Source: Actinomycetes bacterium (GTDB lineage Bacteria; Actinomycetota; Actinomycetes; S36-B12). From it: a stretch of 52,369 nt of DNA. Each line of letters begins with the position of its first letter. Position 1 is the stretch's first letter. Shown here piece after piece: positions 27,106 to 42,501 of this stretch. Made by a program: the position numbers and the translations under genes. The stretch spans positions 1-52,369 of the forward strand of contig JBJSWO010000042.1 of assembly GCA_046085905.1 (NCBI GenBank). The letters are read 5' to 3'. The notes below the pieces were generated by a model. The model ran no database searches and had not been told where the DNA came from. It saw only the letters and a list, made by a program, of their open reading frames with translations.

Positions 27106-27851
27106 GCGAACACCTTCGCGAAGTGAATGCGAGTGTCGACCTGCTCGCGCAGCGCTGCAGTACCGGTAGGTCGGAGAATCTCGCGTCGGGCACGATGGAA
27201 CTCGCGAAAGGATTCCTGCCACTTCACTGATGAGACTCCGCCTTCCTCGAACTTCGCGATGACGAAGTCCACGACGAGGGGATCCGAGACTTTCGACAAT
27301 TCGAGGAATGCCGCATAGTCCGCAGCGATTCGATAAGAGGTGTCGAATCCTCCTATCGACGACAGCAGTTCACGCCGAGCGAGAGTCCCCTGATGCGGTG
27401 GGAAGTGCCCGCGGCCGAAGAGTGCACGCTTCTCGGCCGCGTAATCCCACGGCGGAGTGGTGACAGCTGACCCATCGGCACTCACGATGTCGACCGGACC
27501 GAAGAGCCATGACGGCGAATTCGTCTCAATTGCTACACGCAAGCGTGCGAGCACATCGCTGGATGCGAGAACATCTCCTGCATTCAGGAAATAGACGAAC
27601 TCTCCTGAAGCCTCTGCGATGCCGGCGTTCATTGCCGGATAGATGCCCGCGGGTGCCGTCCATGAATAGGAGTGAACAAGCCCAGCCGCATTTGCAATTG
27701 CACTCTCGATGACTGACGAATCACGTGAACTGTCGATGACGCAGAGCTCGACACCGAGAAGCTCCTGCGTGCGGATCGAATTGAGAGTCCTGATGAATCC
27801 ATCGGGATCATCCTTGACGACAGTGACGATGCTGAGCCAGGTATCGCTCAT
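27072..27851 (-). CDS. Family-2 glycosyltransferase
   Basis: WLSIVTVVKDDPDGFIRTLNSIRTQ...CVIDSSRDSS...YPAMNAGIAEASGEFVYFLNAGD. Start at ATG 27851, 1 nt after the upstream stop. The 3' end overlaps the convergent GT2 by 34 nt. Confidence 0.7.
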   Translation of the reverse strand: MSDTWLSIVTVVKDDPDGFIRTLNSIRTQELLGVELCVIDSSRDSSVIESAIANAAGLVHSYSWTAPAGIYPAMNAGIAEASGEFVYFLNAGDVLASSDVLARLRVAIETNSPSWLFGPVDIVSADGSAVTTPPWDYAAEKRALFGRGHFPPHQGTLARRELLSSIGGFDTSYRIAADYAAFLELSKVSDPLVVDFVIAKFEEGGVSSVKWQESFREFHRARREILRPTGTAALREQVDTRIHFAKVFAYKELILRARR

Positions 27852-27852
27852 C

Positions 27853-28704
27853 TCAGGCTCGCATCGACATCTGGTCGATAGGGGCCGGTTCAACCAGAAG
27901 GCACGAACCGTCGCGTAGGCGGCCGGATTCGAAGAGATCCATGAGTGCGATATTCAGTTTCCAGTCGATCGGCACGACAGGCGTCATCGGCAGTGCATCC
28001 ATTTCCTCCACAAGCACCGAGAGGAATTCACGGCGATAAAGAATCGCGCAGACCGTGTTCGTCACCGGGCGTGAAGCCGAGAGCACACTGCGCCGCACTG
28101 ATCCATCCCAGGCCGGCGCGATCACGGAACTCAGCAGATGCTCGATGCCGAGTTCGGCATTCGTGAACGATTGCGAGACATTCACGTAGCCAATGTTCGC
28201 GGGGCAATCGCGCATCAGCGCGACAAGGCCCCGAGCACAGTCATCGAGGTCGGGAGCGAAGGCATCGTCCTCGAGAATCAGCACCCACTCCGCGCCACTC
28301 GCGAGTCCGCCTCGCATCAGATCGAGATGCGAGAGCTCAATATTGACCAGTCGCCGAACGGATGCAGGCGAGGGAGAGCGGAATCGACGGGTCGCACGCC
28401 GAACGGTGCGAACCAGGGACCGTGCCGCATCGACAATGGAGGGGCTTCCTCCTGCCCGCAGGTAGGAGGCCCATTCGCCCTGCAGTCTCAGCTCTGCACT
28501 CAGGGTCTCCTGGACCACCGAGGCATCGATAGGCAACGAGTCTGGATCGTGAAGATTCCGCGTATTCACCTGCACGAGCGACCCGATGCCCGACCCCTGA
28601 AAGCGCTCGCGGAGGAAGGCGGCGAGTCCTTGTGGCCCTTGGCTTATGGCGAACCGCGAGCCCTCGTGGCTCACGACTCCGATGAAGCAGTCCACCTCAC
28701 TCAC
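27853..28704 (-). CDS. Hypothetical protein, GT25-like putative glycosyltransferase
   Basis: NIELSHLDLMRGGLASGAEWVLILEDDAFAPDLDD resembles the GT25 (LPS glycosyltransferase) SH...ILEDD pattern. The rest is unrecognised. Confidence 0.35.
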   Translation of the reverse strand: MSEVDCFIGVVSHEGSRFAISQGPQGLAAFLRERFQGSGIGSLVQVNTRNLHDPDSLPIDASVVQETLSAELRLQGEWASYLRAGGSPSIVDAARSLVRTVRRATRRFRSPSPASVRRLVNIELSHLDLMRGGLASGAEWVLILEDDAFAPDLDDCARGLVALMRDCPANIGYVNVSQSFTNAELGIEHLLSSVIAPAWDGSVRRSVLSASRPVTNTVCAILYRREFLSVLVEEMDALPMTPVVPIDWKLNIALMDLFESGRLRDGSCLLVEPAPIDQMSMRA

Positions 28705-28721: not shown

Positions 28722-30647
28722 GTGACCGACTCCGACCTCGACATGCGCGAGCCGGACGACGCGTCGGGGAGCCTGAACCACCTCGATTTCGGGCAGCCGA
28801 AGATCAGCTGGGCAGTCCGCAAGTCGATCAGCATGCTGCCCGAGGGCAAGCGACGCACCCTGATCTTCGCCGCGTGCATCCAGGTCGCACTGGGCCTCCT
28901 CGATCTCATCGGCATCGCGCTCATCGGGCTTGTGGCTGCAGTCGCCGTCTCGGGCCTCGGCGCCTCGAGCATCCCCCCGTGGGCAAGCGCGATGCTCGAC
29001 AAGATCGGGCTCGGCGGCTTGAGCATCTCGCAGCTCAGCGTGGTCCTCGCACTCTCGGCAGTGCTCGTTCTCGTGGCCAAGACGGTGCTGAGTGCCTTCA
29101 TGACCCGCCTCATCACCCGCTTCCTTGCCCACCGGCAAGCCGACCTGTCGGTCACGCTCGCGCGCGAGTTCCTGCGTCGGCCACTCGCCGAGGTTCAGAG
29201 GTGGACGACCTCGGAAGCCGTATATGCACTGGGCAATGGCGCCCAAGCTGCCACGGTGGTGCTGCTGGGTTCTGCGATCACGATTGCGTCTGAGACGTTC
29301 CTCTTCGCAATCATCGGCATCTCGCTCCTGGCTTACGACCCGATGATCACGATCGCTAGCGCGCTCTTCTTCGGGGTCATCGTCTTCATCCTTCATAACT
29401 TGCTGTCTCGATGGTCATCACGCAAGGCAGAGGTGATCAAGGAGACCAATATCGAGACGCTGAATGCCGTCTCCGAGGCTCTGTCGACCTATCGCGAGGC
29501 GAGCGTTCTCAATCGCCGTGACCTCTATGTCTCGCGGTACGAGGGAGTCGTGAATCGCTACGCCTCGGCGAGTGCTTCCATGTCGTTCATCGCCGAGGTG
29601 CCGAAGTATGTGCTCGAAGCTGCCCTATACGTGGGCTTGCTCTTCCTCGCCGTTCTCCAGTTCCTCACCAAGAACTGGGGTGCCGCTGCCTCGACCGTCG
29701 CTCTCTTCCTGGCCGCCGGTTCCCGAGTCATACCCTCCGTGCTCAGGCTGCAGGGCGCCGGAATCTCGATCCGAAATGCCTCCGTGATGGCCCAGCCCAC
29801 CTTCTTCATGTTCGACTACCTGCGCCGCCCCCTCGCACGGGGCTCGAAGGACTCCAGCGACCGAGTTACAGCGGATGTCATCCGTGAGCACATCGCGCGG
29901 GGCTACGGGGAGTTCAATGCCTCGGTCGAGGTGGTCGGAGTCTCGCTGACCTACCCGGAGGCCCCGGAACCTGCTTTGAACGACATCACGTTCACTGTGG
30001 CTCCGGGCGAATCGGTGGCCTTCGTCGGTTCAACGGGGGCGGGAAAGTCGACGCTGGCCGACGTCGTTCTCGGAGTGCTAAGCCCTGACTCCGGATCCGT
30101 CCTGATCGGTGGACTTGACCCCCGCGAGGCGATCAACACGTGGTCAGGAGCCGTCGCCTACGTGCCCCAGGCTGTCGCCCTAGTCGACGGCACGGTGCGC
30201 CAGAACGTCGCTCTCGGCATGCCCGACGAGGCGATCGACGATGAGCTCGTGTGGGATGCCCTTCGGCGGGCGCACCTCGCTCATTACCTCGATGACGAGC
30301 GCGAGGGTCTCGACACCTGGGTGGGCGAACGAGGCTTCAAACTGTCGGGCGGCCAACGTCAGCGGCTGGGTATCGCGCGTGCGCTCTACACCCGCCCCAA
30401 GCTCCTTATCCTCGACGAGGCAACGAGCGCCCTCGATGCCGAGACTGAACAGGCAATCGTGCAGACCCTTGCCGAGCTCGAAGGCGAGGTAACGACGATC
30501 ACGGTGGCCCATCGACTTGCCACTGTGCGCAACTGCGATCAGTTGCTTCTGCTCGAGAACGGCGTGGTGACTGCGCGCGGAACCTTCGATGAGCTTCGAG
30601 CAAAGTCCGATGAGTTCGATAACCAAGCCAATCTTCTGGGTCTCTAG
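28722..30647 (+). CDS. Fused TMD-NBD ABC exporter (MsbA / PglK-type half transporter)
   Basis: Six N-terminal hydrophobic helices. Walker A GSTGAGKST, signature LSGGQRQRLGIARAL, Walker B LLILDEATSALD, H-loop TVAHRL. GTG 28722 or ATG 28743 start. Confidence 0.85.
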   Translation: MTDSDLDMREPDDASGSLNHLDFGQPKISWAVRKSISMLPEGKRRTLIFAACIQVALGLLDLIGIALIGLVAAVAVSGLGASSIPPWASAMLDKIGLGGLSISQLSVVLALSAVLVLVAKTVLSAFMTRLITRFLAHRQADLSVTLAREFLRRPLAEVQRWTTSEAVYALGNGAQAATVVLLGSAITIASETFLFAIIGISLLAYDPMITIASALFFGVIVFILHNLLSRWSSRKAEVIKETNIETLNAVSEALSTYREASVLNRRDLYVSRYEGVVNRYASASASMSFIAEVPKYVLEAALYVGLLFLAVLQFLTKNWGAAASTVALFLAAGSRVIPSVLRLQGAGISIRNASVMAQPTFFMFDYLRRPLARGSKDSSDRVTADVIREHIARGYGEFNASVEVVGVSLTYPEAPEPALNDITFTVAPGESVAFVGSTGAGKSTLADVVLGVLSPDSGSVLIGGLDPREAINTWSGAVAYVPQAVALVDGTVRQNVALGMPDEAIDDELVWDALRRAHLAHYLDDEREGLDTWVGERGFKLSGGQRQRLGIARALYTRPKLLILDEATSALDAETEQAIVQTLAELEGEVTTITVAHRLATVRNCDQLLLLENGVVTARGTFDELRAKSDEFDNQANLLGL

Positions 30648-31490
30648 ATGACGGGCTTTTCCTCTGCAGACGTTTCCGCTGTGGTCTGCACGATGAATTC
30701 GATAAGCGGTGTTGAAAGCTGTCTGACCAGCCTGCGTGCTGCCGGTGTCGGTCAACTTGTTGTGGTCGATGCAAACTCCCACGATGGCACCAGGCAGGTT
30801 GCCGAGCGACTAGCCGACGTCGTGTTGAGCGATCCCGGCATAGGCCTGGGGATGGCCCGCAATGTGGGCATCGCGGTCTCCACGGAGCCACTCATTTTGA
30901 ACATGGGCTCCGACAATGTGATGCCTCCCGGTCAATTGCAACGCATGATCGACTACAAGTCTCGTGGCAAATTTGATGGAGTCAGTGCACAGACCCTGAT
31001 CGTAGGCGGCGACTATCTGTCTCAGAGCCTTAACTCGTGGCGCAAGGGCAGGTTCCGTCCGGGAAGGGCCGCCGTCATCGGAACCCCGACCCTCTTCAGC
31101 GGAGACTTGCTACGTCAGCACCCTTACGACCCGACACGTCGCTTCTCCGATGACTCCGAGCTCTGCGAGCGGTGGGAGAGAGATCTTGATGCAACTTTTG
31201 CAATCTCAGATGCTTATGTTGAGGAGATCGGCAAGACCTCGTGGAATGAGCTGGTAGTCAGGTGCCGTATGTACGGCATTTCCGACAAGGAAGTTTTCAC
31301 ACAGGGGCGTTCGAGCGGCTGGTCAGTTCAAAGACAACTGAAGTCACTCGCGCATCCGATGCGAGCCGACTTCATCGACCCTATAACGCACCTAAGTCCG
31401 CTGGAGGCCGCCAAGTCCGCGCCGTTCTTGGTTGCCTTCGCTGGTATGCGGTATGCGTTCTGGATCGCTAAGGTACTCGGGAGTCGCTAA
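30648..31490 (+). CDS. Family-2 glycosyltransferase
   Basis: Starts immediately after the ABC gene stop (TAGATG). VSAVVCTMNSISGVESCLTSL...LVVVDANSHDGTRQVAE...GMARNVG. Confidence 0.7.
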   Translation: MTGFSSADVSAVVCTMNSISGVESCLTSLRAAGVGQLVVVDANSHDGTRQVAERLADVVLSDPGIGLGMARNVGIAVSTEPLILNMGSDNVMPPGQLQRMIDYKSRGKFDGVSAQTLIVGGDYLSQSLNSWRKGRFRPGRAAVIGTPTLFSGDLLRQHPYDPTRRFSDDSELCERWERDLDATFAISDAYVEEIGKTSWNELVVRCRMYGISDKEVFTQGRSSGWSVQRQLKSLAHPMRADFIDPITHLSPLEAAKSAPFLVAFAGMRYAFWIAKVLGSR

Positions 31491-31548
31491 CTCGATCGTC
31501 GCGCCCAGTTCGGAAAAGCATAGCGAGGTTGCTTCAAGAGCTTGAACT

Positions 31549-31566
31549 ATCTCAGCCGCCTGAGAT
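31549..31566. terminator. Candidate hairpin between convergent genes
   Basis: ATCTCAG-ccgc-CTGAGAT (7-bp stem) in the 109-nt gap between the GT2 (+) and pseB (-). A second small GC hairpin GGGCC-caga-GGCCC lies at 31583-31596. Confidence 0.3.
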
Positions 31567-31599
31567 GCGCCTCCACATCAGAGGGCCCAGAGGCCCAAT

Positions 31600-32586
31600 T
31601 CATATTCGAAGTTTAGTGAGCAAGTCTCGAATCTGATCCACGTTGAGCCAGAGGTCATTTGCATCGGAGGTGTAAGAGAATCCATCTTCAACAGGGTCTC
31701 CGGCAGGAGAATTGAACCCCCAGTCAGCGAGCGTGGGAAGAACTACATATCGGTCTGCTTGCCGCAGAGTTCGGCGGGAATCCTCCGCAGAGATCATTTC
31801 CTCGTGCAGCTTCTCGCCCGGACGAATTCCGACCTCGACAAGTTCCGCGTCCGGCGCAACCGCTCGAGCCAAATCAACGACCTTCATGCTCGGAATGCGC
31901 GGGACGTAAAGTTCACCACCGGCCATGTCGCCAAACGAGCTCATCACGAACTCGACCGCTTGGGGCAGGGTGATCCAGAATCGGGTCATGCGCATGTCTG
32001 TAATAGGCAGCGGCTGACCGGATTCTGCGAGACGACGGAAGAAGGGGATGACTGATCCTCGGCTACCCATCACATTGCCGTACCGAACTACGGAAAAGTG
32101 TGTGTCGTAACCATTTGAGTAGTGGTTGCTTGAGATAAAGAGTTTGTCAGCCGTCAGCTTAGTTGCGCCGTACAGGTTGACCGGAGACGATGCCTTGTCA
32201 GTCGACAGTGCTACGACCTTCTTGACGCCTGCTTCTATGGAAGCTTGCATGACGTTCTCGGAACCCAATATGTTTGTTTTCACGTATTCCATTGGGTTGT
32301 ATTCAGCCGTGTCGACTTGCTTGAGGGCAGCGGCGTGGACCACAAGATCAACCCCATGCAAAGCCATCTTAAGACGGTCTCGGTCGCGTATATCTCCCAA
32401 GAAGAAGCGAACACGCGGGTCATCACCCCACTGCTGTCGCAATTCGTACTGCTTGAGTTCGTCTCGAGAGAAGACCGCCACTCGACGAGGATTATGTGAC
32501 GTAAGCGCCGACTCAAGAAAGGCCTTACCGAATGATCCGGTGCCGCCAGTAAGTAGAACCGATGCATTGTCGAGGTGATCGACCAT
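31600..32586 (-). CDS. pseB: UDP-N-acetylglucosamine 4,6-dehydratase (inverting), PseB/FlaA1 type
   Basis: VLLTGGTGSFGKAFLE...VFSRDELKQYELRQQW...RVRFFLGDIRDRDRL...HAAALKQVDTAEYNPMEYVKTNILGSENV...LSTDKASSPVNLYGATKL...FSVVRYGNVMGSRGSVIPFF...ITDMRMTRFWITL...GIRPGEKLHEEM is collinear with PseB/FlaA1. Start at internal ATG 32586 (MVDHLDNASVLLTGG). Confidence 0.85.
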   Translation of the reverse strand: MVDHLDNASVLLTGGTGSFGKAFLESALTSHNPRRVAVFSRDELKQYELRQQWGDDPRVRFFLGDIRDRDRLKMALHGVDLVVHAAALKQVDTAEYNPMEYVKTNILGSENVMQASIEAGVKKVVALSTDKASSPVNLYGATKLTADKLFISSNHYSNGYDTHFSVVRYGNVMGSRGSVIPFFRRLAESGQPLPITDMRMTRFWITLPQAVEFVMSSFGDMAGGELYVPRIPSMKVVDLARAVAPDAELVEVGIRPGEKLHEEMISAEDSRRTLRQADRYVVLPTLADWGFNSPAGDPVEDGFSYTSDANDLWLNVDQIRDLLTKLRI

Positions 32587-32612
32587 TGGTACTCCTGCCA
32601 GATTTGAGCAAC

Positions 32613-33455
32613 TCAGAGCAAAGATAGATGCACCATTGCGCACCCAGTAGCGTAGGGTCGAAGCGCACTAGACTGGTGTGTTAGTGCGGAGAAACTCTCG
32701 ACCTCCAACCAACCCAATTCTGGGTCGTAGGTGTAGAAAGCTTCGTTTCGAACCTGGAATCTGGGGTCAGAAGTAAGCGTTACCCAAGACGTCTCATCAT
32801 ATTCGAACTGGTGAGTGAAAAGTCCGAGGGAATCCTCATGGAGGATCGGGAGCCCCTTGCCAGCAGGGACTGAGATGAAGAGCGAGCCACCGGAGACGAG
32901 TAGGCGCGCCGCAGCATCCAGGAAAAGTTGATCCGTTTGAGGATCCCGAATTGCGACAGCACCTTCAGGCGTTCTGGATCTAACGAAAGCAGAACTCGAG
33001 TCAGATTCGGGTGAAGCGACATCAAAGCCAATATGTTCCAAAGTAGAAACGCAGGTGATTGCGTCGTAACGTCCGTCCGACGGCTGAGCGAGGAGGAAAT
33101 CCTCTACGCGCACAGGGGTCGAGAGCACCCGGTCGACTAGATCCGTGGGGTAACGAGTTTTTACCCTTGAAGGGTTGATGATGTCAATCCCCGTGAGAAG
33201 AGTGCCGCGATCCGCCACGGCGAACAGAACACCGAGCCATTCCGGCGGTGACATGGCCCATCCCACGTCGAGAAGTCGGTTAACACCTCCGAGTTGCCCC
33301 GCTACCCAAGGAACTTCTACGCATCGCTCCGAGAAGTCGCGGGTGTCAGGCCCGCGGAGTGGAGCCAGGACTCCAGCTTGCAGGCTCGCAAGACCTGCCT
33401 TCAAGACAACTTCAGATTCTGTGTTCGAACTCGAGTTCATTTGGACCCCCTCCAT
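32613..33455 (-). CDS. Hypothetical protein with class I methyltransferase-like fold
   Basis: RLLDVGWAMSP (degenerate motif I), YDAITCVSTLEHIGFD and LLVSGGSLFISVP. The assignment is weak. Confidence 0.4.
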   Translation of the reverse strand: MEGVQMNSSSNTESEVVLKAGLASLQAGVLAPLRGPDTRDFSERCVEVPWVAGQLGGVNRLLDVGWAMSPPEWLGVLFAVADRGTLLTGIDIINPSRVKTRYPTDLVDRVLSTPVRVEDFLLAQPSDGRYDAITCVSTLEHIGFDVASPESDSSSAFVRSRTPEGAVAIRDPQTDQLFLDAAARLLVSGGSLFISVPAGKGLPILHEDSLGLFTHQFEYDETSWVTLTSDPRFQVRNEAFYTYDPELGWLEVESFSALTHQSSALRPYATGCAMVHLSLL

Positions 33456-33498
33456 ATCCGTGAAGCCTCCAACCTACCGTGCATGGCACCATTGACCT

Positions 33499-34332
33499 AT
33501 GGCGACGTTATGTCTAGGCACTGCCCAATTGGGCTCGGCTTACGGCGTGACAAATTCGCGGGGCCGATTAGGTGATGCCGATTTGGACGGGATCATTCAA
33601 ATGGCTCATGTGCATGGCATAGTTTCGATAGATACGGCCCCGGCATATGGGAACTCTCAAACGAGACTCGCTCCTTATTGCCGTGATCTCGTAATCACGA
33701 CCAAGGTGAAAGCCAATTCGCACTCACCCATGCTCGATCAGGTTCGTGCGAGTTTGAGCCAGCTCGGCGTCTCATCGGTGAGAACTCTGCTGATTCATGA
33801 CTGGTTCATGCTCGATTCGACCCGCGCGGCAGCGGCTGCTAAGGAGCTCTCAGAAATCCGAGAACTTGGACTCGTCAGCGAAATCGGAGTTTCTGGCTAC
33901 GAGCCGGCTGATATTGAGAGAGCCCTGAAAGAGTTCGACCGCCTTGATGCGGTTCAATTTCCGGCGAGTGCCCTCGACTCAAGACTCAATCAACATTCCG
34001 TTTTGGCTGATCTCAAAACGGAAGGAACTCGAATTCAGGCTCGGAGCGTATTCCTGCAGGGTCTTTTGGCCGCCGAATGCACCGTCGCACTAGGCCAGCA
34101 CGCCGATGTTGTGCGCTTCCATGCAGAGTGTCGGGAGGCAGGAATTTCATCCCTGGAAGGTGCATTGGCGGTGGTCCGGGCTCTACCTTGGGTGTCGGAG
34201 ATCATCGTCGGCGTGACGTCGGGACAAGAGCTCGGAGAGATTTTCTGTGCTTGGGATTCTCCTTTGCCAGAATTCATGAATTTCACGGCATCACAAGATC
34301 TCGCGCTTATTGATCCCCGAAACTGGGCATAA
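33499..34332 (+). CDS. Aldo/keto reductase family oxidoreductase
   Basis: LCLGTAQLGSAYG N-terminus and IDTAPAYGNSQ (the AKR Asp/Tyr signature). 277 aa. Confidence 0.7.
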   Translation: MATLCLGTAQLGSAYGVTNSRGRLGDADLDGIIQMAHVHGIVSIDTAPAYGNSQTRLAPYCRDLVITTKVKANSHSPMLDQVRASLSQLGVSSVRTLLIHDWFMLDSTRAAAAAKELSEIRELGLVSEIGVSGYEPADIERALKEFDRLDAVQFPASALDSRLNQHSVLADLKTEGTRIQARSVFLQGLLAAECTVALGQHADVVRFHAECREAGISSLEGALAVVRALPWVSEIIVGVTSGQELGEIFCAWDSPLPEFMNFTASQDLALIDPRNWA

Positions 34333-34358
34333 ATAGATCGTTCTGTGAGACTTGTCTT

Positions 34359-35135
34359 GTGACCATTCTTGCCATCGTACAAGCCCGCATGACGTCGACC
34401 CGATTCCCAGGAAAGGTACTCTCGCCTCTTCTGGGCGAGCCGATGATACTGCGCCAGCTAGAAAGGGTTTGCCGCGCAAGACACCTAGAGAGTCTCATTA
34501 TTGCCACCTCAACAGATCCGAGTGATGACCCGCTGGTTGAAGTTCTCGAAACGGCGGGCTACTCGGTTTTCCGTGGGCCCCTAGATGACGTTCTCGCCCG
34601 CTTCATTGGCGCTATCGACGACTTCCAAAGCAGGACCGGCTGCATGGTCGACGTCGTGGTCAGGTTGACAGCGGACTGCCCTTTGGCTTCCCCCGAAGTG
34701 ATCGACGAGGTCATTGATGTATTCCAATCTTCAGCGGCCGACTATGTCTCGAATACGATGACACCGACCTTTCCAGATGGCCTCGATGTGGAGGTAATCA
34801 AGGTCGAAGTGCTCCGTGAAGTTGCATCGGTGGCAATCGATCCTCCTGAGCGCGAGCATGTGACACTGGGTGTGTACAGGAGAAATAGGACGTACGCGAT
34901 CGGCAACTACAGCGATTCACGAAACAACTCCGATCTGCGTTGGACGGTGGACACGCCCGAGGACCTGGCCTTCGTTTCTCAAGTGTACGAAGCTCTATAT
35001 CCGAATGATTGTGAATTTGAATATCAGGATGTCCTGGACTACCTCCAGAATTATCCAGAAAGAAGTAGGACTATTCGGGATGCTGCCAGGAACGCAGCAC
35101 TCAAGGAAATCGACACTGGAGCCATGAATGCCTAG
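34359..35135 (+). CDS. SpsF-type cytidylyltransferase (COG1861-like, CMP-/CDP-sugar forming)
   Basis: MTILAIVQARMTSTRFPGKVLSPLLGEPMILRQLERV is the typical N-terminus of SpsF-like acylneuraminate-cytidylyltransferase-fold proteins. GTG start. Confidence 0.7.
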   Translation: MTILAIVQARMTSTRFPGKVLSPLLGEPMILRQLERVCRARHLESLIIATSTDPSDDPLVEVLETAGYSVFRGPLDDVLARFIGAIDDFQSRTGCMVDVVVRLTADCPLASPEVIDEVIDVFQSSAADYVSNTMTPTFPDGLDVEVIKVEVLREVASVAIDPPEREHVTLGVYRRNRTYAIGNYSDSRNNSDLRWTVDTPEDLAFVSQVYEALYPNDCEFEYQDVLDYLQNYPERSRTIRDAARNAALKEIDTGAMNA

Positions 35136-35145
35136 ATGGAACGGC

Positions 35146-35173
35146 AACGGGTCGGCGATTCGCCACCGTTTTT
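35146..35173 (+). terminator. Candidate rho-independent terminator or attenuator
   Basis: AACGG-gtc-GGCG-att-CGCC-a-CCGTT imperfect stem followed by a T run (35169-35173, ccgTTTTTg), 11 nt after the cytidylyltransferase stop and 11 nt before the next start. Confidence 0.3.
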
Positions 35174-35183
35174 GTGAGAGCAC

Positions 35184-36764
35184 ATGAGATCAGTGTTCGC
35201 GCAAGTTCGAAATCATTGGTTCCCAATCTCAGCGGGGCTCCTCTGCTTTGGATGGGCGCTTCTAGCCTGGCTGACTGTGATTCCAAATCAGGATCTGCTC
35301 GCGGACGGAATTCAGGTGCAAAGCTTGATTCACGATCCGCGCATCGTGCTCTCATTTCCGGGCCAAAAGCACGGAGGCACGCTCGAATACCCATTCAGCG
35401 TCTTGGCCGAGATGGTTTCTCCTGGCAACTATTTTCTCGAGTCATCCATTAGACCGGTTTTTGCTTTCCTGACGGGGTTCTTCGCCGCCTGTCTGTATAG
35501 GACGTATTTCGCGAGAGCCCCTCGCTGGTCCTTCCTCTTGGCTGTAGGAGTAGGACCAACAGTGCTTCAGGGGTTGGCCGGTCCGGTAGAAAATCCAGTA
35601 GGAGTTTGGTGGCTCAATGCTAACTACGACATTGCATGGCTTCTGGTAATCATTGGATTTTGGCTACTCGCCCGCGAAGTGACATCAACTTCTATGCATC
35701 GAGCTCGTGCGCCTCGGGTGTGGATGTTCATCCTCACAGGCTTGGTGGTTGGTCTTGGCTTTTATCAGCAGCCCACCTCCATCCTGCTGATTCTCCCCAT
35801 GGCGGTGCTCTTTCTACTTCGTTTCCGAATAAGCCTCAGACAACTCTCGATACTTCTGCTTGGAGGCCTCATCGGAATCTTTCCCGCGATATTGAGCTAC
35901 TTTCTTGCACCGATCACGACCTGGAATCCCTCTCATTTCCCTGTTTTTCGACCAGACTTGGCTTTGGCTTCTCTTGGCCTTGACGGAGTCCCGAACTACG
36001 CGATCGCGCTCCTCCCGAGCGCTCTAGGATTTGCACCTGCAACCACGATCGCAATCGCGCGTCTCCAAACCATAGTCTCAGCTCTCTTCCTTCTCTCGAT
36101 GTTGATCTTTGCGCTGGTGGGAACCGTTCATGCACTTCGTCGGCGAAGCCGAGTGTCCGAGGGGACTGCTATATCGGTTTGCTGGATTGCAGTGGCCGGA
36201 TCGATCGTCTTTTTCGGCATCTTTGTCGACCCGGTGTGGTTCTATTCGGCCCATCTCTCGATTGTCCTGTGGATGAGCATCGGAATACTTCCTCAACTAA
36301 TCAGGGTTAAATGGATTAGCCGCGCTGCACCTGTGTGCATCTGCCTCGTGGTGGCTCTCAGCACCTTGGCACAGAACGGAACGGGGGTTGTTAACCTGAA
36401 AGAGAGATTTTCGGAAAAGCGTGAGTATCTCTCGACGTTGAATGCGTACGCCTCTGAGATGAGGAAGCTTGACAGTAGGTTTCTGTACGGTTCGTACTAC
36501 GACGTACTGCCGATCGCGTATGGATCCGCTGGCTCGTTGCATCCAGTGTCAAGCACCTATAACCGATTTCCATTGCCTGACTCTGCGCTGACTGGCTTGG
36601 AAGTGGTGAAGGTTGGAATCCGAATTGATCCCACTGACGAGTGGGGGATAACAAGCCTTAGCGAGGTAAGAGAATTGTGTTCAGCTAACGCTAGATTTGT
36701 GAACGGTCAATTGGGAAGATTTCAAGTGTTCGACTGCCCAGTCTCAATACTCGGAAAACGGTAA
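35184..36764 (+). CDS. Polytopic membrane protein (~12 TM) with ~130-aa C-terminal soluble domain; candidate GT-C
   Basis: 526 aa, hydrophobic to ~aa 395, then soluble (NLKERFSEKREYLSTLNAYASEMRK...). Low-GC codon usage. No family recognised. Confidence 0.5.
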   Translation: MRSVFAQVRNHWFPISAGLLCFGWALLAWLTVIPNQDLLADGIQVQSLIHDPRIVLSFPGQKHGGTLEYPFSVLAEMVSPGNYFLESSIRPVFAFLTGFFAACLYRTYFARAPRWSFLLAVGVGPTVLQGLAGPVENPVGVWWLNANYDIAWLLVIIGFWLLAREVTSTSMHRARAPRVWMFILTGLVVGLGFYQQPTSILLILPMAVLFLLRFRISLRQLSILLLGGLIGIFPAILSYFLAPITTWNPSHFPVFRPDLALASLGLDGVPNYAIALLPSALGFAPATTIAIARLQTIVSALFLLSMLIFALVGTVHALRRRSRVSEGTAISVCWIAVAGSIVFFGIFVDPVWFYSAHLSIVLWMSIGILPQLIRVKWISRAAPVCICLVVALSTLAQNGTGVVNLKERFSEKREYLSTLNAYASEMRKLDSRFLYGSYYDVLPIAYGSAGSLHPVSSTYNRFPLPDSALTGLEVVKVGIRIDPTDEWGITSLSEVRELCSANARFVNGQLGRFQVFDCPVSILGKR

Positions 36765-36822
36765 TTCGCGTGCATTCATGCGATGCGCATTTTGAACTTG
36801 GCACATTCCCCAAGTCAAGGAG

Positions 36823-38568
36823 GTGAATGTGAAGGGTAGTTTTCAGTTGAAACGCTTTCTTGCACCATTTTTTCTCGGCGTACTCACAACTGCTTACTTC
36901 TTTCTTCCAGCGCATTACGATCCTGAGCCCTATCACGATGGATCCCAATTTGCAGGTGCGTTAGGCCTAACGGAAGGTCTGGCAACGCACGCTGAGGTCT
37001 TCAGTGCCTACGGTTTCCTAACTACCTGGATCCAGGGTGCTGCAGTTGCCATTCTCGGACCCTCGTTGCTTTCAATCCGCATTTTGACGATTCTTACTAT
37101 CCTCATTGCGGTACTTCTCACGTATTCACTCTTGAACAGTGTGCTTCGAAAGCCTTGGCTGTCAGTTCTGGCGTGCTCCGCCTGGGTTGTCATGTGGCCC
37201 GGAATCTCGGTCAATTGGGGAACCCCTCTACTGCCTTGGCCATCCCTGGTGTACTTAGATTTTCAGCTCGCCTGCGTGGTGTTGATTCTGAAGATCATTG
37301 ATGGCGTTTCGCACCCGCGGATGTACCTCTTCTTTGCGGCCTTCTTTGGTTCGTTAGCGCTTCTAACCCGCATCAATTACGGCCTCTTCTTCTGCCTTTT
37401 CATGTTGTTCGCGTTGGTTGCATTTCGTCGACACATCGGATTGAATCACGAACATTTCGCTCCTGGAATTATTGGATTTCTAAGTCCTCTAATAGTTTCT
37501 GGAGTCGTACTTCTGGCCACAAGCTCCTTGCGAGACTATGTGGAACAGTCAATTACGGGACCATTGAACGGTGCAGTAAAGACTTCAGCGACTGACTTAC
37601 TTTTCCTGGAAAACGCGTACCTACGTGCTTCGCTACCAATCTTCATCGCCCTGGGGTTTGTGTTATGGCTAAGCCGACGGTGGGATTGCGGAAGTCTAGT
37701 CTTTGGAGTGGTCATCGCTGCGGTTACGGGTGTCCTCACCGCGATAAGTACAACCGCGATTTTGGAATCACCTCTTCGAGACGCAATACTCACGCGACTT
37801 ACGTGGGCCCCAGGACTTGACACGCAGGCGATGCAAGCATGTTTTGTGTTTGCGATTGTGACGATTGCTGCAACGCTGGGCATGATCGTGGTATTGCTAG
37901 TTCGAAAGCTTGCATCTTCTCCTCGGTTTCTGAGCAAGAAGTCTTTGCCGTGGAATGGAAGCCCGATGACCTTCTATCTTCTGCTCTTGGCTGCACTCTC
38001 GTCGCTCGTGCAACTCTTTCCTATCGCGGACCCTAACCACTTGTGGTGGGCAGTCCCGCTGCCACTCGCGTTTACCTGTTTCATATTGTGTTACTCAGCA
38101 AGTAGCCGAACCACCGCGGCAGTTGCGTGTGTTCTCTTCGCACCGATGTTGCTAATTGCCCCTTTCACCGGATTTCGGTACTACGAGGTTCCTAGGTCGG
38201 AAGCCAACTCTCCTTCGCTTGCAGGAATGTATGTAAAGACCAGCCTCGCATCCGACTTTGCAAAGGTAGACGATTTTCTTGCATCCTTGGAGCCAAGGAG
38301 CACGAAGTTCCTGTGTCACGGTGGATTGTTTGCAACATGGACGGGTGAATATTTGGCGTCGGACGCCGACTATGTTGATTATGCGTATGGGACCGACCAG
38401 AGGAGTCTGGATCTTGATCCGGACTCCGTGGTTTACTGCGAAGAGAGGGGCGCTGAAGGTGCTGCTGCAGAGTACGCTGAGACGCACGGACTCCGCGTGG
38501 TCGATGAGACAGGTCCGATTTCGTTGTCCTATTTCGCTCAGGTAAACCTGGTGCGTCTCGCTCGTTAG
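36823..38568 (+). CDS. Polytopic membrane protein (~13 TM) with ~140-aa C-terminal soluble domain; candidate GT-C
   Basis: 581 aa. Strong AAGGAGG at 36817-36823, so GTG 36829 may be the true start. First loop PAHYDPEPYHDGSQFAG contains acidic residues, as in GT-C first loops. Lowest GC of the window. Confidence 0.5.
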   Translation: MNVKGSFQLKRFLAPFFLGVLTTAYFFLPAHYDPEPYHDGSQFAGALGLTEGLATHAEVFSAYGFLTTWIQGAAVAILGPSLLSIRILTILTILIAVLLTYSLLNSVLRKPWLSVLACSAWVVMWPGISVNWGTPLLPWPSLVYLDFQLACVVLILKIIDGVSHPRMYLFFAAFFGSLALLTRINYGLFFCLFMLFALVAFRRHIGLNHEHFAPGIIGFLSPLIVSGVVLLATSSLRDYVEQSITGPLNGAVKTSATDLLFLENAYLRASLPIFIALGFVLWLSRRWDCGSLVFGVVIAAVTGVLTAISTTAILESPLRDAILTRLTWAPGLDTQAMQACFVFAIVTIAATLGMIVVLLVRKLASSPRFLSKKSLPWNGSPMTFYLLLLAALSSLVQLFPIADPNHLWWAVPLPLAFTCFILCYSASSRTTAAVACVLFAPMLLIAPFTGFRYYEVPRSEANSPSLAGMYVKTSLASDFAKVDDFLASLEPRSTKFLCHGGLFATWTGEYLASDADYVDYAYGTDQRSLDLDPDSVVYCEERGAEGAAAEYAETHGLRVVDETGPISLSYFAQVNLVRLAR

Positions 38569-38590
38569 AAATCAACCACTTGGTGCGTTG

Positions 38591-39442
38591 TTATCGTGCC
38601 TTAGTCCATGTCGCGAAGATGCTGGAACCAAACGGAAGTCGAATCTGTTTCGCGAGAGCTGATTCCGTGGCGAGGATCTTGCGAAGCACTGACTGCACTA
38701 AGGGAGATGGATTGAGTTGCTTCAGCATCTGATTTCGAACTTGCGCTTCGGAGCGACGAATGCCGAGTCGATATGGCACAGTTCGAGACATAAGCGCGGC
38801 GATGGCCAGTGATCCGAACAAGAATTCACTCGTGACCTCTCTAAACCCGGTGTTGAAGGCAAGCCGCGACAGTTTGTCTCTCGTGTAGCGAAGTTCATGC
38901 CCAGCAAACTCATCCTCCTCAGACCAGAGAATCGGTAAGGCCGGCACCGTGATTAGCAGCCGACCGTGGGGAGCAAGAACCCTATGAACTTCCGCTAAGA
39001 GTGTCGCCGGTTCACGCAAGTGCTCCAGCACATCAAACAGGCCAATCGCGTTTAGGCTTCCCGTTGGGAACTTCATTTGTTCCAATGTGCCGGCGAAGGC
39101 GACTAGCCCGTTTTCCCGCATGGAGACGGTTGCCCGCAAATCAGGCTCGACACACAAGACTTCGAATCCCAACTCATTCAGTCGACTGGCATTTGCTCCA
39201 AGACCCGCTCCAATATCCCAAAGGGTTTGATCGCCACTCTCTCGAAGTGCCGTAGCGATACGCTCGGACCGGTGATCGAACCAGTACCCCGAAACGTCGC
39301 CAGCAAGAAGCACATCAAAGCCCATCTCGGGATAGGTTCCGTCGCCTCTTACTGCCGGAACCGAATTGCCCGCCAGTGTGTAAGAGAAGTCCTGCTCTGG
39401 CAGAAGCCAACCTTGCTCGCGAAGGCGATCCAACTCAGTCAC
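38591..39442 (-). CDS. Class I SAM-dependent methyltransferase
   Basis: TLWDIGAGLGANASRLNELGFEVLCVEPD (motif I plus acidic loop), LNAIGLFDVLEHL and LAPHGRLLITVPA. Confidence 0.7.
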   Translation of the reverse strand: MTELDRLREQGWLLPEQDFSYTLAGNSVPAVRGDGTYPEMGFDVLLAGDVSGYWFDHRSERIATALRESGDQTLWDIGAGLGANASRLNELGFEVLCVEPDLRATVSMRENGLVAFAGTLEQMKFPTGSLNAIGLFDVLEHLREPATLLAEVHRVLAPHGRLLITVPALPILWSEEDEFAGHELRYTRDKLSRLAFNTGFREVTSEFLFGSLAIAALMSRTVPYRLGIRRSEAQVRNQMLKQLNPSPLVQSVLRKILATESALAKQIRLPFGSSIFATWTKAR

Positions 39443-39546
39443 AACGCTAGACTAGCCAGAGCGATTTCATTTTGCGGGAAGACATTTCAACTAGACTGTT
39501 CGCGGATAAGTGGAACTCAACTTTGGGGCCTAGTTTGAACGACAAG

Positions 39547-40536
39547 ATGAGCGAAATGGTTGCGCGAAAAATGCCCCTGTCTGCAGGAACATCGATTGTC
39601 GTGCCTGTTTTCCAAAGTTCAACTTCTCTCGAGATCTTGAAGGAAAGAGTCGTCTCCGCACTTTGTGGCAGGAACTTCGAAGTTTTGCTAGTGGACGACG
39701 GGAGTGATGAGACGACCTGGGCGAGTGTCAAAGCGGTCGTCTCGTCAGACGCGAGGTTTCGCGGCATTAGGTTGTCTAGAAACTTCGGCCAGCACAGCGC
39801 CCTTGTAGCCGGCGTACGCGCTGCCCGATTTGAAACCACGGTCACGATTGATGATGATCTTCAAAATCCTCCTGAAGAGATCACCAAACTTCTTGAGCGA
39901 CTAGATACCAGTCAAGCCGATGTCGTATATGGAGTGTCACCGCTCGTGCGTCAAAGTCTTGGACGAAGAATCGCAGGCAGGATCACTCGCCGAACGCTAA
40001 AGAGCGGTCTCGGAATTGCATCTGCGCCGCAAATGAGTTCATTTCGAGCGTTCCGGACTGAACTCCGCGAAGGATTTGCGGGTGAAATCGGAACCAATGT
40101 CTCCCTTGACGCGTTGTTGACGTGGGCGGCATCCCGCTACGACCACGTCAACGTTCGCCATGATCCTCGCGAATTTGGCTCATCCACTTACAGCATGAAA
40201 AAGCTTGTGCGATTTGCGATCGACAGCATGACTGGGTACAGCACCCTTCCGCTGCAGATAGCAAGCTTGCTGGGGCTAGCGACGGCACTCTTTGGCGTCA
40301 TCGTGCTTCTCTTCGTCACACTGCGCCCCCTGATTCAGGGTGCGTCCATCCCAGGTTTTCCATTTCTAGCATCGACAGTTGCAATCTTTTCAGGGGTTCA
40401 GTTACTAACTCTAGGAGTAATTGGCGAGTATCTGGCGCGCATGCATTTTCGAATTATGAACAAACCCACGTATGTGATTTCAGAGATGGCTATCCCGAAC
40501 CACCAGGCGTATCGCCAGGATTGCACGGATGTGTAG
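39547..40536 (+). CDS. ArnC/GtrB-type GT2: polyprenyl-phosphate sugar transferase with two C-terminal TM helices
   Basis: TSIVVPVFQSSTSLEIL...FEVLLVDDGSDETTW...RGIRLSRNFGQHSALVAGVRAARFETTVTIDDDLQNPPEEI, then TM helices LPLQIASLLGLATALFGVIVLLFV and FLASTVAIFSGVQLLTLGVIGEYLARM. This is the ArnC/GtrB architecture. Start at ATG 39547. Confidence 0.75.
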   Translation: MSEMVARKMPLSAGTSIVVPVFQSSTSLEILKERVVSALCGRNFEVLLVDDGSDETTWASVKAVVSSDARFRGIRLSRNFGQHSALVAGVRAARFETTVTIDDDLQNPPEEITKLLERLDTSQADVVYGVSPLVRQSLGRRIAGRITRRTLKSGLGIASAPQMSSFRAFRTELREGFAGEIGTNVSLDALLTWAASRYDHVNVRHDPREFGSSTYSMKKLVRFAIDSMTGYSTLPLQIASLLGLATALFGVIVLLFVTLRPLIQGASIPGFPFLASTVAIFSGVQLLTLGVIGEYLARMHFRIMNKPTYVISEMAIPNHQAYRQDCTDV

Positions 40537-40542
40537 TTTCAG

Positions 40543-41670
40543 ATGATTCCCTTCAATCGTGCTCAACTCTTCGGCGCAGAACTTGCCCACATGCAGAGAG
40601 CGCTCGCGAATGGCCATATTTCAGGAGGAGGTCCGTTCAATGAGATGGCGGAAGACATTCTGGGCACCTACATGCGGGGGTCACGGGCACTTCTAACAAC
40701 TTCATGCACTCATGCCCTTGAGTTGGCCAGTCGTGTTTTGGAGTTGGGGAAAGGTGACGAGGTGATTGTTCCGGCATTCACTTTCGTCTCCACGGCATCT
40801 GCCTTCGCACTCAGCGGAGCTACGCCCGTCTTCGCCGATGTTTCAGACCGGACATTAGGACTCACCCTTGACGCCATTAAGGGGTCTTTTACGCCGAGAA
40901 CTAGGGCCGTTTGTGTCGTTCATTACGCGGGCGTACCAACGGAGCTTGAAGAGATAAGTGCATGGTGCCAAGACCAGGGAGTCACCCTTATCGAAGACAA
41001 TGCGCATGGACTCGGATCGACTCTTAACGGACGACCGCTAGGAACCTTCGGGAGTCTCTCCACGTTGAGTTTCCATGAGACAAAAAACATCACGTGCGGC
41101 GAGGGTGGCGCGTTGGTCGTAAACCACAAACCATTGATTCCCCAGGCTGAGATCCTTCGCGAGAAGGGTACTGACCGAAGCCAGTTCATCCGCGGCCAAA
41201 TAGATAAGTACACCTGGCAAGCCGCGGGGTCTAGTTGGGTGCTATCAGACATGCTTGCCGCTTTCTTGGTCGGTCAACTTGAGATGTTCGAAGACATTCA
41301 AATGACTCGAAAGTCGATATGGAATTTTTACGAAGCTAGTCTGGGCACGTGGGCTCAAGAGAACGGAGTGCGTACGCCGACGGTGCCTGATCAGGTTGAT
41401 CACTCAGCTCACATGTATTTCCTGAGACTCCCTGATCACGAATCGCGGTCTCGATTTATCGATCACATGTCTTCGCGTGGGGTCATGACGGTGTTTCACT
41501 ACCAGGCACTGAATGCGTCGCCGATGGGGATCAAGCTTGGAGGGATTTCGGGCTCATGCCCGGTGGCCGAAGAACTGAGCGGGACCCTGGTACGGCTGCC
41601 GCTGTTCGCGACATTGACACCATTTGAGCAGCAGAGTGTGGTGCATGCCGCCATTGATTTCAAGGTCTAA
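40543..41670 (+). CDS. wecE: WecE-like NDP-4-keto-6-deoxyhexose 4-aminotransferase (DegT/DnrJ/EryC1 family)
   Basis: MIPFNRAQLFGAELAHMQRAL...ISGGGPF, SFHETKNITCGEGGAL (PLP lysine), REKGTDRSQFIRGQIDKYTW, AHMYFLRL, VFHY and LVRLPLF are collinear with E. coli WecE as I remember it. 6-nt gap to the upstream gene. Confidence 0.85.
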   Translation: MIPFNRAQLFGAELAHMQRALANGHISGGGPFNEMAEDILGTYMRGSRALLTTSCTHALELASRVLELGKGDEVIVPAFTFVSTASAFALSGATPVFADVSDRTLGLTLDAIKGSFTPRTRAVCVVHYAGVPTELEEISAWCQDQGVTLIEDNAHGLGSTLNGRPLGTFGSLSTLSFHETKNITCGEGGALVVNHKPLIPQAEILREKGTDRSQFIRGQIDKYTWQAAGSSWVLSDMLAAFLVGQLEMFEDIQMTRKSIWNFYEASLGTWAQENGVRTPTVPDQVDHSAHMYFLRLPDHESRSRFIDHMSSRGVMTVFHYQALNASPMGIKLGGISGSCPVAEELSGTLVRLPLFATLTPFEQQSVVHAAIDFKV

Positions 41671-41676
41671 TTCGAC

Positions 41677-42327
41677 ATGAATTTGGCAGATTACATCGCC
41701 GCCGAGAATCACTCGGTTGAGGCTGCTCGGGCTGATGAATTCGCGAGCAACCCGGAAATCGGGATTCGAATGATTCGAATCTCGGAGTGGATTCTTAAGG
41801 AACCTGACCTTCTAGAAATTTTCGTCACTTGGCGCCGACACTCTCGAGAAAAGTTCTTTGCTCGATTTGCTGAATCTAGACCAAGCATGGAGAGATACCT
41901 GAGGGGAGTATGCCAAGATCCATTTCGCGTTCTCTTCCTGATTGAGGACCAGAACCTGCTGCCTTTAGGGCACATCGGGCTAAAGGCTTTGGACTCCAGT
42001 ACCCCTGAGATTGATGCCGTGATGGTGAATCCGAATGCTCGGGCAAAAGGAGTTATGTCTTGGGCTCTAGAGCAATGCGTTCTAAGCCTAGGGTCGCTTG
42101 CGCATGTGTCCAATGTGAAGCTTGACGTACTTTCAAACAATGAACAAGCCATCTCCTTGTACCGCAAATGTGGATTTGTACACGCCTCCAGTCGGAGTCT
42201 GCGGTTAGTCCAAGGTGAGGGTTTCGAAGTTCTCACGCCCTGCGATCCAGAGGACAGCGACATCAGTATCCGAGCCGTGACAATGACGAGGGAGTTAGAA
42301 CATGCTTCCAAGCAGGTCGTCGATTGA
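41677..42327 (+). CDS. GNAT-family N-acetyltransferase (WecD / PseH-like role)
   Basis: 216 aa. GHIGLKALDSSTPEIDAVMVNPNARAKGVMSWALEQCV...NEQAISLYRKCGFV is a GNAT acetyl-CoA motif A region. 6-nt gap after the aminotransferase. Confidence 0.6.
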   Translation: MNLADYIAAENHSVEAARADEFASNPEIGIRMIRISEWILKEPDLLEIFVTWRRHSREKFFARFAESRPSMERYLRGVCQDPFRVLFLIEDQNLLPLGHIGLKALDSSTPEIDAVMVNPNARAKGVMSWALEQCVLSLGSLAHVSNVKLDVLSNNEQAISLYRKCGFVHASSRSLRLVQGEGFEVLTPCDPEDSDISIRAVTMTRELEHASKQVVD

Positions 42328-42501
42328 TTCCGGTTGTCTCCGTTGTGAGAAATGCGGAGCGCTCCGAGCTAGACGGCCTACAGGGCCTTTTCCGAAAGCG
42401 CCAATTTAGCTGGAAATCTCTCTAGGCGACGAATCCCGCCTTCATCTCCAGACGAGGTCGTCAAGGCATCACCCATTCTTCGGCACTCGCCACCTGTAGA
42501 A

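Follow-up and report, generated by a model that had tools for sequence, protein, structure and literature searches.

Three-component lipid-carrier modules are known from several bacterial glycans, among them ArnC/ArnT (lipid A), GtrA/GtrB/GtrC (O-antigen conversion), PpgS/Rv3779 (mycobacterial arabinogalactan) and PgfS/PgfM (Streptococcus mutans). Replacement flexible genomic islands, also called 'glycotype' islands, have been described in aquatic prokaryotes, and their exchange has been inferred to take place via homologous recombination in conserved borders (Lopez-Perez, Martin-Cuadrado and Rodriguez-Valera 2014, PMC4033161). The O-antigen clusters of the galactose-initiated serogroups of Salmonella show a low, stepped GC content, read as import from lower-GC sources together with recombinational reassortment (PMC3715488). 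Here we analyze a locus with likenesses to these systems on contig JBJSWO010000042.1 of assembly GCA_046085905.1 (Actinomycetes bacterium, GTDB lineage S36-B12). The window, that is, the whole stretch of 52,369 nucleotides that was analyzed, is contig C42, the longest of the metagenome-assembled genome (MAG) G000, which comprises 234 contigs and 1.98 Mb, with 64.9% GC and 76% completeness. The MAG lacks rpoB, and a scan with the rpoB of a congener gave, among the matches listed, Streptomyces and Actinomadura at 81% and Nanopelagicaceae at 79%, a placement at the level of class. The whole contig is one large wall-glycan locus with RmlA, Gmd-type dehydratases, glycosyltransferases (GT) of families GT4 and GT2, two GT87 enzymes and an ABC exporter, and it includes a block of low GC content downstream of the exporter gene. 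We conclude, with a probability of about 0.75, that this block at present fills a hypervariable slot of the ~50-kb cell-wall glycan locus, swapped by recombination from a lower-GC relative. As in replacement flexible islands, the same chromosomal slot in related lineages serves surface-glycan synthesis and holds functionally equivalent, unrelated gene sets in different strains, with no marks of site-specific or illegitimate recombination.

Sliding G+C, 0.60-0.65 in the surrounding DNA, is 0.50-0.57 from about 30.6 to 42.5 kb, and a two-mean likelihood scan places the change points at 30,581 and 42,531, within about 80 nt of the limits (30650-42450) given in a preliminary description of this DNA made from its letters. 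The block so delimited (~30,581-42,531; ~11.9 kb) has 53% GC, whereas the remainder of the contig has 62-63% and the MAG as a whole 64.9%, and the mean per 60-nt line is 32.1/60 inside and 37.6/60 outside (Mann-Whitney p = 2e-59). Hand counts in the preliminary description (21-25/60 inside, 43-45/60 outside) had the direction right, although they came from the tails of the distribution, the typical contrast being ~53% vs 63%. The G+C content of third codon positions (GC3) is 0.53-0.60 in ten island genes and 0.655 in the first GT2 gene, against 0.69-0.87 in adjacent genes; the genome median of ~0.79 comes from a rough greedy set of open reading frames (ORFs) in which some shadow ORFs are included. 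In the 1.98-Mb assembly, the 10-kb windows lowest in GC fall in the island, as do 11 of the 21 2-kb windows below 57% GC and the three most deviant 5-kb tetranucleotide windows (z = 5.5-6.3). Sliding GC, GC3 and tetranucleotide scans all agree with the sharp GC drop and the A/T-richer third codon positions noticed earlier, and the island is the strongest compositional outlier of the assembly.

To describe what occupies this position elsewhere, the contigs of the 30 members of the 90%-identity cluster of the ABC exporter were surveyed. In what follows, G000 is the host MAG and G003 and G004 are genomes of the same genus; L107 is a 16.2-kb ENA scaffold from ERZ19569877 and L195 a locus on a 311-kb scaffold from ERZ19547693; L198, L199, L200 and L202 are loci of the closest relative found, from SRR31724214-16 (L202 being a contig of Logan SRR31724215), and L204 and L205 are Logan contigs. 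Contigs identical to the window occur in run SRR29270189. The block holds 11 ORFs rather than the 12 genes initially counted, the individual gene calls having been essentially right. The features of the block and its borders, in window coordinates, are the following.

28722-30647, plus strand: ABC exporter of 641 amino acids (aa) with fused transmembrane and nucleotide-binding domains (TMD-NBD); Pfam ABC_tran and ABC_membrane; GC3 0.79, equal to the genome median
30581-30700: left breakpoint; GC change point, with identity to L198 collapsing here as well
30648-31490, plus strand: GT2 glycosyltransferase 'GT2a', 280 aa, first gene of the cassette; Pfam Glycos_transf_2; intermediate GC3 (0.66)
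31600-32643, minus strand: PseB-type UDP-GlcNAc 4,6-dehydratase (inverting); NCBIfam TIGR03589, 480 bits against a cut-off of 408
32613-33455, minus strand: S-adenosylmethionine (SAM)-methyltransferase-like protein, 280 aa; weak match to Methyltransf_23 (E = 0.0013)
33499-34332, plus strand: aldo/keto reductase (AKR); Pfam Aldo_ket_red, 6.8e-23
34359-35135, plus strand: CTP_transf_3 cytidylyltransferase (CTP); Pfam PF02348, 4.9e-25; distant kin of KdsB, PseF and SpsF
34750-35850: internal seam, where synonymous identity to L107 is back at the saturated baseline
35184-36764, plus strand: polytopic membrane protein, 526 aa; family not assigned by domain searches
36823-38568, plus strand: predicted GT-C-fold glycosyltransferase, 581 aa; AlphaFold2 (AF2) model and Foldseek
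38591-39442, minus strand: SAM-dependent methyltransferase; Pfam Methyltransf_11 and Methyltransf_23
39472-40536, plus strand: ArnC/PgfS-like GT2, putative polyprenyl-phosphate sugar synthase; NF007986 and PgfS models
40543-41670, plus strand: WecE-type dTDP-4-keto-6-deoxyhexose 4-aminotransferase; NF008687, 462 bits against a cut-off of 375
41677-42327, plus strand: GNAT N-acetyltransferase; Pfam Acetyltransf_1; lowest GC of all, 0.505
42328-42531: right breakpoint, from the intergenic region into the first codons of the 752-aa gene; GC change point at 42,531 and drop of synonymous identity to L107
42502-44760, plus strand: 752-aa protein; no Pfam family; GC3 0.72, host-like composition

The left anchor of the slot, that is, the ABC exporter and the genes upstream of it, is syntenic in L198, L195, L107, a 79-kb JGI contig, G003, G004, G018 and L020, the exporter itself being 98% identical in amino acids to that of L198 (synonymous divergence, dS, 0.36) and 92-93% identical in L107, L195 and the JGI contig. 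The right side of the slot is only partly conserved among relatives. At least five gene sets occupy the slot, four of them, namely the G000/L107, L198 and L195 types and that of the JGI contig, behind exporters with 92% identity or more, and the fifth in the congener G003, with an exporter 65% identical. All sets encode glycan genes, in agreement with the earlier proposal of a natural unit of surface-glycan variation. In G003 and G004, DUF4910, GT2 and a hypothetical gene precede, in this order, the ABC exporter, after which come GT2 (85% aa identity), PseB (90%), AKR (65%) and cytidylyltransferase (79%), followed by ~10 kb of other genes with 0.53-0.57 GC between flanks of 0.60-0.63, which in G003 encode Aminotran_3, an FAD oxidoreductase, a PMT_2-like GT-C, three unassigned large proteins, DegT and GT2. 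In L195 the exporter is followed by GT2, PseB (75%), AKR (43%), CTP (54%) and then Wzy_C, Bac_transf and DegT, and in the JGI contig by GT2, Wzy_C, an epimerase, a methyltransferase, DegT and FdtA. The four loci of the closest relative carry the exporter (98%) and a GT2 gene, and then at least 27 kb of unrelated glycan genes with 0.46-0.59 GC; these are followed by a PseB-AKR-CTP triad in inverted orientation, by WecG and by a homologue (748 aa, 59.5%) of the 752-aa protein.

At the DNA level the block is absent from eight congeners and 173 family genomes, a search for its second part (module B, see below) in the same 173 genomes returning only fragments of 65-73% identity. The comparison of the locus across relatives thus bears out that the block is foreign to this genome and absent or different in close relatives. 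The preliminary description had seen it as grafted into a resident locus; insertion in that sense does not agree with the survey, since no empty site exists in the relatives compared and homologous or alternative genes occupy the same position. The possibility of a non-actinobacterial donor, also raised at the outset, found no support either, the best matches of every island gene tested being actinobacterial MAGs.

Two details of the alternative gene sets can be added. In L202 (reverse-complemented, 13100-15750) the inverted PseB-AKR-CTP triad stands at the far end of the variable region, adjoining Wzy_C and Bac_transf, and its position there indicates that the slot has been rearranged as well as replaced. 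The DegT gene of the G003 slot (L009:7375-8533, equivalent to G003:C45:37375-38533) consists of two overlapping ORFs (255 and 188 aa), one for each half, N- and C-terminal, of the DegT Pfam model, likely as the result of a frameshift or as a pseudogene.

The history of the block can be compared with that of its flanks through L107, which holds a hypothetical gene, the ABC exporter, all 11 island genes and a homologue of the 752-aa gene in the same order, with uniform GC content (0.50-0.61; 54% overall). The proportion of synonymous differences between G000 and L107 (pS, Nei-Gojobori) is saturated in both flanks (0.67-0.74), with 0.72 in the hypothetical gene at 27853, 0.67 in the exporter and 0.74 in the 752-aa gene. 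It is unsaturated (0.34-0.56) in nine of the 11 island genes, with values of 0.34 for the methyltransferase-like gene, the lowest, 0.35 for AKR, 0.42 for GNAT, 0.43 for the methyltransferase, 0.45 for both the ArnC-like GT2 and the aminotransferase, 0.50 for the GT-C, 0.53 for PseB and 0.56 for the 526-aa protein; GT2a gives 0.65 and the cytidylyltransferase 0.62. The exporter proteins are 93% identical despite the saturation of their synonymous sites, and the PseB proteins 94%. Codon identity at conserved residues, with a flank baseline of 0.33-0.47, is 0.66-0.81 at 32.1-34.4 kb, 0.35-0.47 at 34.75-35.85 kb and 0.55-0.79 at 35.9-42.3 kb, and then drops. In addition, the GC content of the block is the same in G000 and L107, while in the flanks that of G000 is 5-10 points higher. 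Lower divergence and matching GC therefore indicate that the block coalesces with L107 later than the flanks do, and the block is compositionally at home in the L107 context. Synonymous comparisons with G003, G004, G002, G018, L019 and L020 were saturated throughout.

Maximum likelihood trees (two support values per node) point in the same direction. The ABC tree joins G000 and L198 (99/99) within a clade that includes L107 and L195 (100/100). The PseB tree joins G000 and L107 (100/98), and the GT2a and CTP trees group G000, L107, G003 and G004 (100/99) to the exclusion of L198 and L195. The ABC tree is incongruent with those of PseB, GT2a and CTP at support of at least 98%. Composition and synonymous-site history agree in favoring the lower-GC source proposed in the preliminary description.

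These data bear directly on an origin in situ, by which the block would have been inherited vertically and its low GC made or kept locally, through relaxed codon selection, AT-biased mutation or selection for AT-rich DNA. Every variable cassette at the locus is low in GC whatever the GC of its flanks (G003, L198-L202, L109), and the cassettes share a tetranucleotide signature, as local causes would produce: the block correlates with its own genome at r = 0.59, with the non-homologous L199 and L200 cassettes at 0.90-0.92 and with the low-GC part of G003 at 0.85. O-antigen processing genes are likewise systematically lowest in GC, which 'needs explanation' (PMC3715488). Vertical inheritance is nevertheless hard to reconcile with a closest relative that holds entirely different slot genes beyond a sharp breakpoint, with the absence of the block from congeners and family genomes and with a synonymous divergence to L107 that is lower inside the block than outside, and the strongly supported incongruence of the gene trees largely refutes it. 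The island genes are intact and their dN/dS with respect to L107 is 0.04-0.24, which shows purifying selection. We therefore consider an origin in situ unlikely.

The left breakpoint could be mapped against the closest relative. The left flank is 0.86-0.98 identical to L198, with dS of 0.25-0.36 (0.36 in the exporter, 0.25-0.33 in the genes upstream) and equal GC3. Identity is 0.94-0.95 at 30.0-30.6 kb (up to 30.62), the final 600 nt ahead of the border thus included, and it falls to 0.73 and 0.65 in GT2a and to noise after 31.4 kb. GT2a is only 68.6% identical in amino acids to its L198 counterpart (dS 1.72), although the adjacent exporter is 98% identical. The break corresponds to the exporter stop and GT2 start (TAGATG at 30645-30650) and coincides with the GC change point. 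The right break rests on the GC step and the comparison with L107, in which synonymous identity goes from 0.70-0.79 to 0.33-0.40.

With a fragmented and incomplete MAG, an artifact had to be considered in which the sequence of a GC-rich strain was joined, during assembly or binning, to that of a co-occurring lower-GC relative at conserved sequences. The contig L205 stops exactly in the right junction, and exact look-ups of the ABC and 752-aa proteins in other records found neither of them, both of which are compatible with a chimera. At the left junction, however, the independent contig L204, obtained with a second assembler, is identical to window positions 29210-34687 (100%); the last 23 nt of L204 are Illumina adapter sequence (AGATCGGAAGAGCACACGTCTGA), which is why its end does not align to the window. 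L107 independently presents the same gene adjacency at both junctions, and the bin contains no second copy of flank or island genes. A double switch would also need near-identical stretches at both ends, where known relatives are 80% and 55-70% identical. A chimeric contig is, in our opinion, very unlikely.

Sharply set off in composition over about 12 kb and absent from relatives, the block also resembles integrase- or tRNA-associated islands and integrative and conjugative elements, so that a classical mobile island whose site-specific recombinase or transposase has since been lost, or lies beyond a contig of only 52 kb that leaves distant elements out of view, was weighed as well. It differs from those elements in the following: there is no tRNA in the 52-kb contig, the border repeats, direct or inverted, are only those expected by chance, no island ORF has an integrase or transposase domain, no recombinase lies in or beside the block within the contig, and relatives have glycan genes at this position instead of an empty site. 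In addition, both borders fall at the ends of genes within an operon-like array. A mobile element is thus scarcely credible here, and the earlier remark that integrase, transposase, tRNA and flanking repeats are not visible holds after tRNA, repeat and domain searches.

Under cassette replacement, a lower-GC member of the same actinobacterial clade would have been the donor, and recombination would have replaced the previous content of the slot, which, with no empty site left, explains the absence of integrase, tRNA and repeats. We infer the direction of the transfer and the mechanism as follows. The left crossover would have taken place in or at the end of the highly conserved exporter gene, which offers ample homology, since its proteins share 92-98% identity throughout the clade. 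As for the right joint, it would lie in the intergenic region upstream of the 752-aa gene, and could be either a crossover with an unsampled donor or an illegitimate end-joining event with homology on one side only. Furthermore, the block itself is a mosaic of two units with different histories that meet at the internal seam. Module A comprises GT2a, PseB, the methyltransferase-like protein, AKR and the cytidylyltransferase, and is found with the exporter in many relatives as divergent alleles. Module B comprises the 526-aa protein, the GT-C, the methyltransferase, the ArnC-like GT2, the WecE-like aminotransferase and GNAT, and is rare and portable. In L109 module B is found at 55-75% amino acid identity in another context, in a stretch of 0.52-0.57 GC between flanks of 0.59-0.64.

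Several observations weigh against replacement from a lower-GC relative. No near-identical donor was found, the best copy (L107) being about 80% identical in DNA, and L107, known from a scaffold of 16.2 kb, might itself belong to a GC-rich genome as a wider island of low GC. The low GC and signature that all the cassettes of the clade have in common might also stem from a process specific to the locus and not from the composition of a donor. L205 ends at 42,456, 129 nt past the GNAT stop, and does not cover the right junction, and the right-flank gene lacks a close relative, homology to L107 there amounting to only 55-70% in nucleotides. Finally, the border genes present no clear peak of synonymous changes with respect to L198, unlike the published replacement islands. 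The locus also departs from those islands (PMC4033161) in that the right border is not a conserved core gene, and in that the published cases concern strains within one species, some with identical islands in divergent backgrounds, while here different species are compared, with the nearest copy at ~80%.

As for the timing, island GC3 is 0.55 in G000 and 0.57 in L107, at pS of about 0.45, and third-position sites that differ as AT/GC are symmetric (109 vs 106), with no net GC3 shift. A rough two-state calculation in which the host regime (equilibrium GC3 of about 0.79) acts for the block's own half of the divergence predicts a GC3 near 0.68. The lack of drift toward the host would therefore imply, as a rough estimate, that most of the divergence accrued in a low-GC background and that residence in this genome has been comparatively short, which fits the situation in L198, with a dS of only about 0.3 from G000 and yet a different cassette. 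The block had been described as recently acquired, and this seems correct for its residence in the GC-rich genome, given the undrifted GC3; it is less so with regard to the nearest copy, at only ~80% DNA identity. Polarizing the island changes with L109 as outgroup was discarded, because it gave an excess of S>W changes on both branches, as a saturated outgroup produces.

Other low-GC regions were detected. A second, milder dip (0.56-0.58; GC3 0.64) covers a left-flank GT2 gene at window positions 27072-28200. It is common to L198, with the same GC and 85-93% identity, and is therefore older and resident, outside the swapped block. Elsewhere in G000, smaller stretches of low GC and deviant tetranucleotide composition (z = 3.4-4.4) are C8, C139, C116, C233:7000-9000 and C11:5000-7000, which could be further flexible islands or misbinned contigs. 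C8 has 7.7 kb and 57% GC and carries an ORF of about 1,106 aa with 56% GC, and C139 has 5.3 kb and 56% GC.

Regarding the proteins encoded in the block, the 581-aa protein has a confident AF2 model (pLDDT 87.7, pTM 0.90) with a GT-C fold. Foldseek gave ArnT (5f15/5ezm) first, with probability 1.00, followed by DPY19, EmbB and PglB. A sequence profile of this protein against the PDB returned nothing, so that the fold search alone identified it; PMT_2 is matched by 12 of its 26 homologues. Near the N-terminus, D33, P34, P36, H38 and D39 are invariant and E35 nearly so, and only two close relatives (79% and 58%) were found among 5.8 billion proteins. A polyprenyl-phosphate sugar donor is predicted for this enzyme. 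The 526-aa protein has no Pfam or NCBIfam match (a TMEM260-like one at E = 0.11), its AF2 model is of low quality (pLDDT 60), a profile search of the PDB yielded no credible match (one at E = 0.23), and its hhalign comparison with the 581-aa family reached a probability of 48% over 71 columns; it may be a second GT-C or a flippase. The ArnC-like GT2 matches NF007986 (ArnC) over its full length with 159 bits (cut-off 529) and PgfS with 135 bits (cut-off 500), that is, with family-level resemblance. The aminotransferase reaches 406 bits with TIGR02379, under its cut-off of 434.85, and GNAT stands next to this WecE-type gene in the position of WecD. In module A, the true start of PseB is possibly internal, relatives being called at 328 aa, and many homologues of the 280-aa methyltransferase-like protein carry PF13489. 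An apparent internal duplication, by which genes of 581, 376 and 216 aa at 15.8-22.1 kb mirror the island genes of 581, 375 and 216 aa at 36823-42327, was rejected after an all-against-all BLASTP that gave no paralogy.

Module B would thus make and transfer one sugar. The WecE-type aminotransferase and GNAT would produce a dTDP-4-acetamido-4,6-dideoxyhexose, a sugar identity that we infer from the two enzymes, the ArnC-like GT2 would load it on polyprenyl phosphate, and the GT-C, perhaps with the 526-aa protein, would transfer it to the wall glycan on the outer face of the membrane. This arrangement is like that of the ArnC/ArnT modules in having a full-length ArnC/PgfS-like GT2, a GT-C that best matches ArnT and adjacent, dedicated sugar-nucleotide tailoring enzymes. 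It differs in that its GT2 falls far under the ArnC and PgfS equivalog cut-offs, in that the block has no gene for a small flippase of the GtrA or ArnE/F type, its intergenic gaps being of 110 nt at most and no small membrane ORF having been found, and in the predicted sugar, dTDP-derived rather than L-Ara4N, glucose or GalNAc.

A complete nonulosonic acid pathway (PseB, PseC, PseH, PseG, PseI, PseF) is not encoded in the block, where only PseB passes its equivalog cut-off. The aminotransferase is WecE-type and not PseC, the cytidylyltransferase stays under the NCBIfam cut-offs for KdsB and PseF (20 bits vs 206 for PseF), and there is no NeuB in the window. The only NeuB-family gene (G000:C68:2044-2769, L203) belongs to another glycan cluster, whose GC is normal (0.64), with GT2-like and epimerase-like ORFs as neighbors, and might complement the PseB and cytidylyltransferase genes of the island. 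Lsr2 was not found in the MAG, which at 76% completeness is uninformative.

To the right of the block, the 752-aa protein is 67.6% identical to its L107 homologue, 59.5% to those of the L198 lineage and G002, and 40% to those of G003 and G004, and a scan of JGI metagenomes for relatives gave 48-49% identity at best. By these comparisons the gene is a rare, variable allele and not conserved core, and its lack of a close relative implies that the region that varies at the population level is wider than the low-GC block.

As in O-antigen (rfb) and capsule clusters, the locus consists of segments of different GC, all under the genome value and lowest in the type-specific genes, with intermediate GC beside the conserved flank, where GT2a would take the place that rml has in those clusters. 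Unlike them, it serves an actinobacterial wall glycan of the Gram-positive type and works with an ABC exporter and with GT87 and GT-C enzymes instead of a Wzx/Wzy O-unit pathway, and the contrast is milder (53% vs 65%).

The kind of event is a familiar, textbook one, here with well-mapped borders, and provides a clean, well-bounded case in which a surface-glycan cassette was replaced in a GC-rich lineage of uncultured actinobacteria, with one breakpoint mapped to a gene boundary. It also brings out a rare, portable, GT-C-based decoration module that is biochemically testable. A broader and more speculative reading, which we hold as possible though doubtful, is that the variable cassettes of the clade form one shared low-GC pool (0.46-0.57 GC, with a common tetranucleotide signature) exchanged across species of ~58%-65% GC with its composition kept, and that module B is a self-contained portable cassette adding 4-acetamido-4,6-dideoxyhexose to an actinobacterial wall glycan via a new GT-C family. 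If true, this would mean a turnover that outpaces amelioration, or else a vehicle or selective regime for AT-richer glycan DNA that has gone unrecognised. Glycan slots of this kind are thought to set phage susceptibility and so to maintain strain diversity; by analogy, a role of this cassette as a phage-receptor or serotype-switching module is plausible in this lineage.

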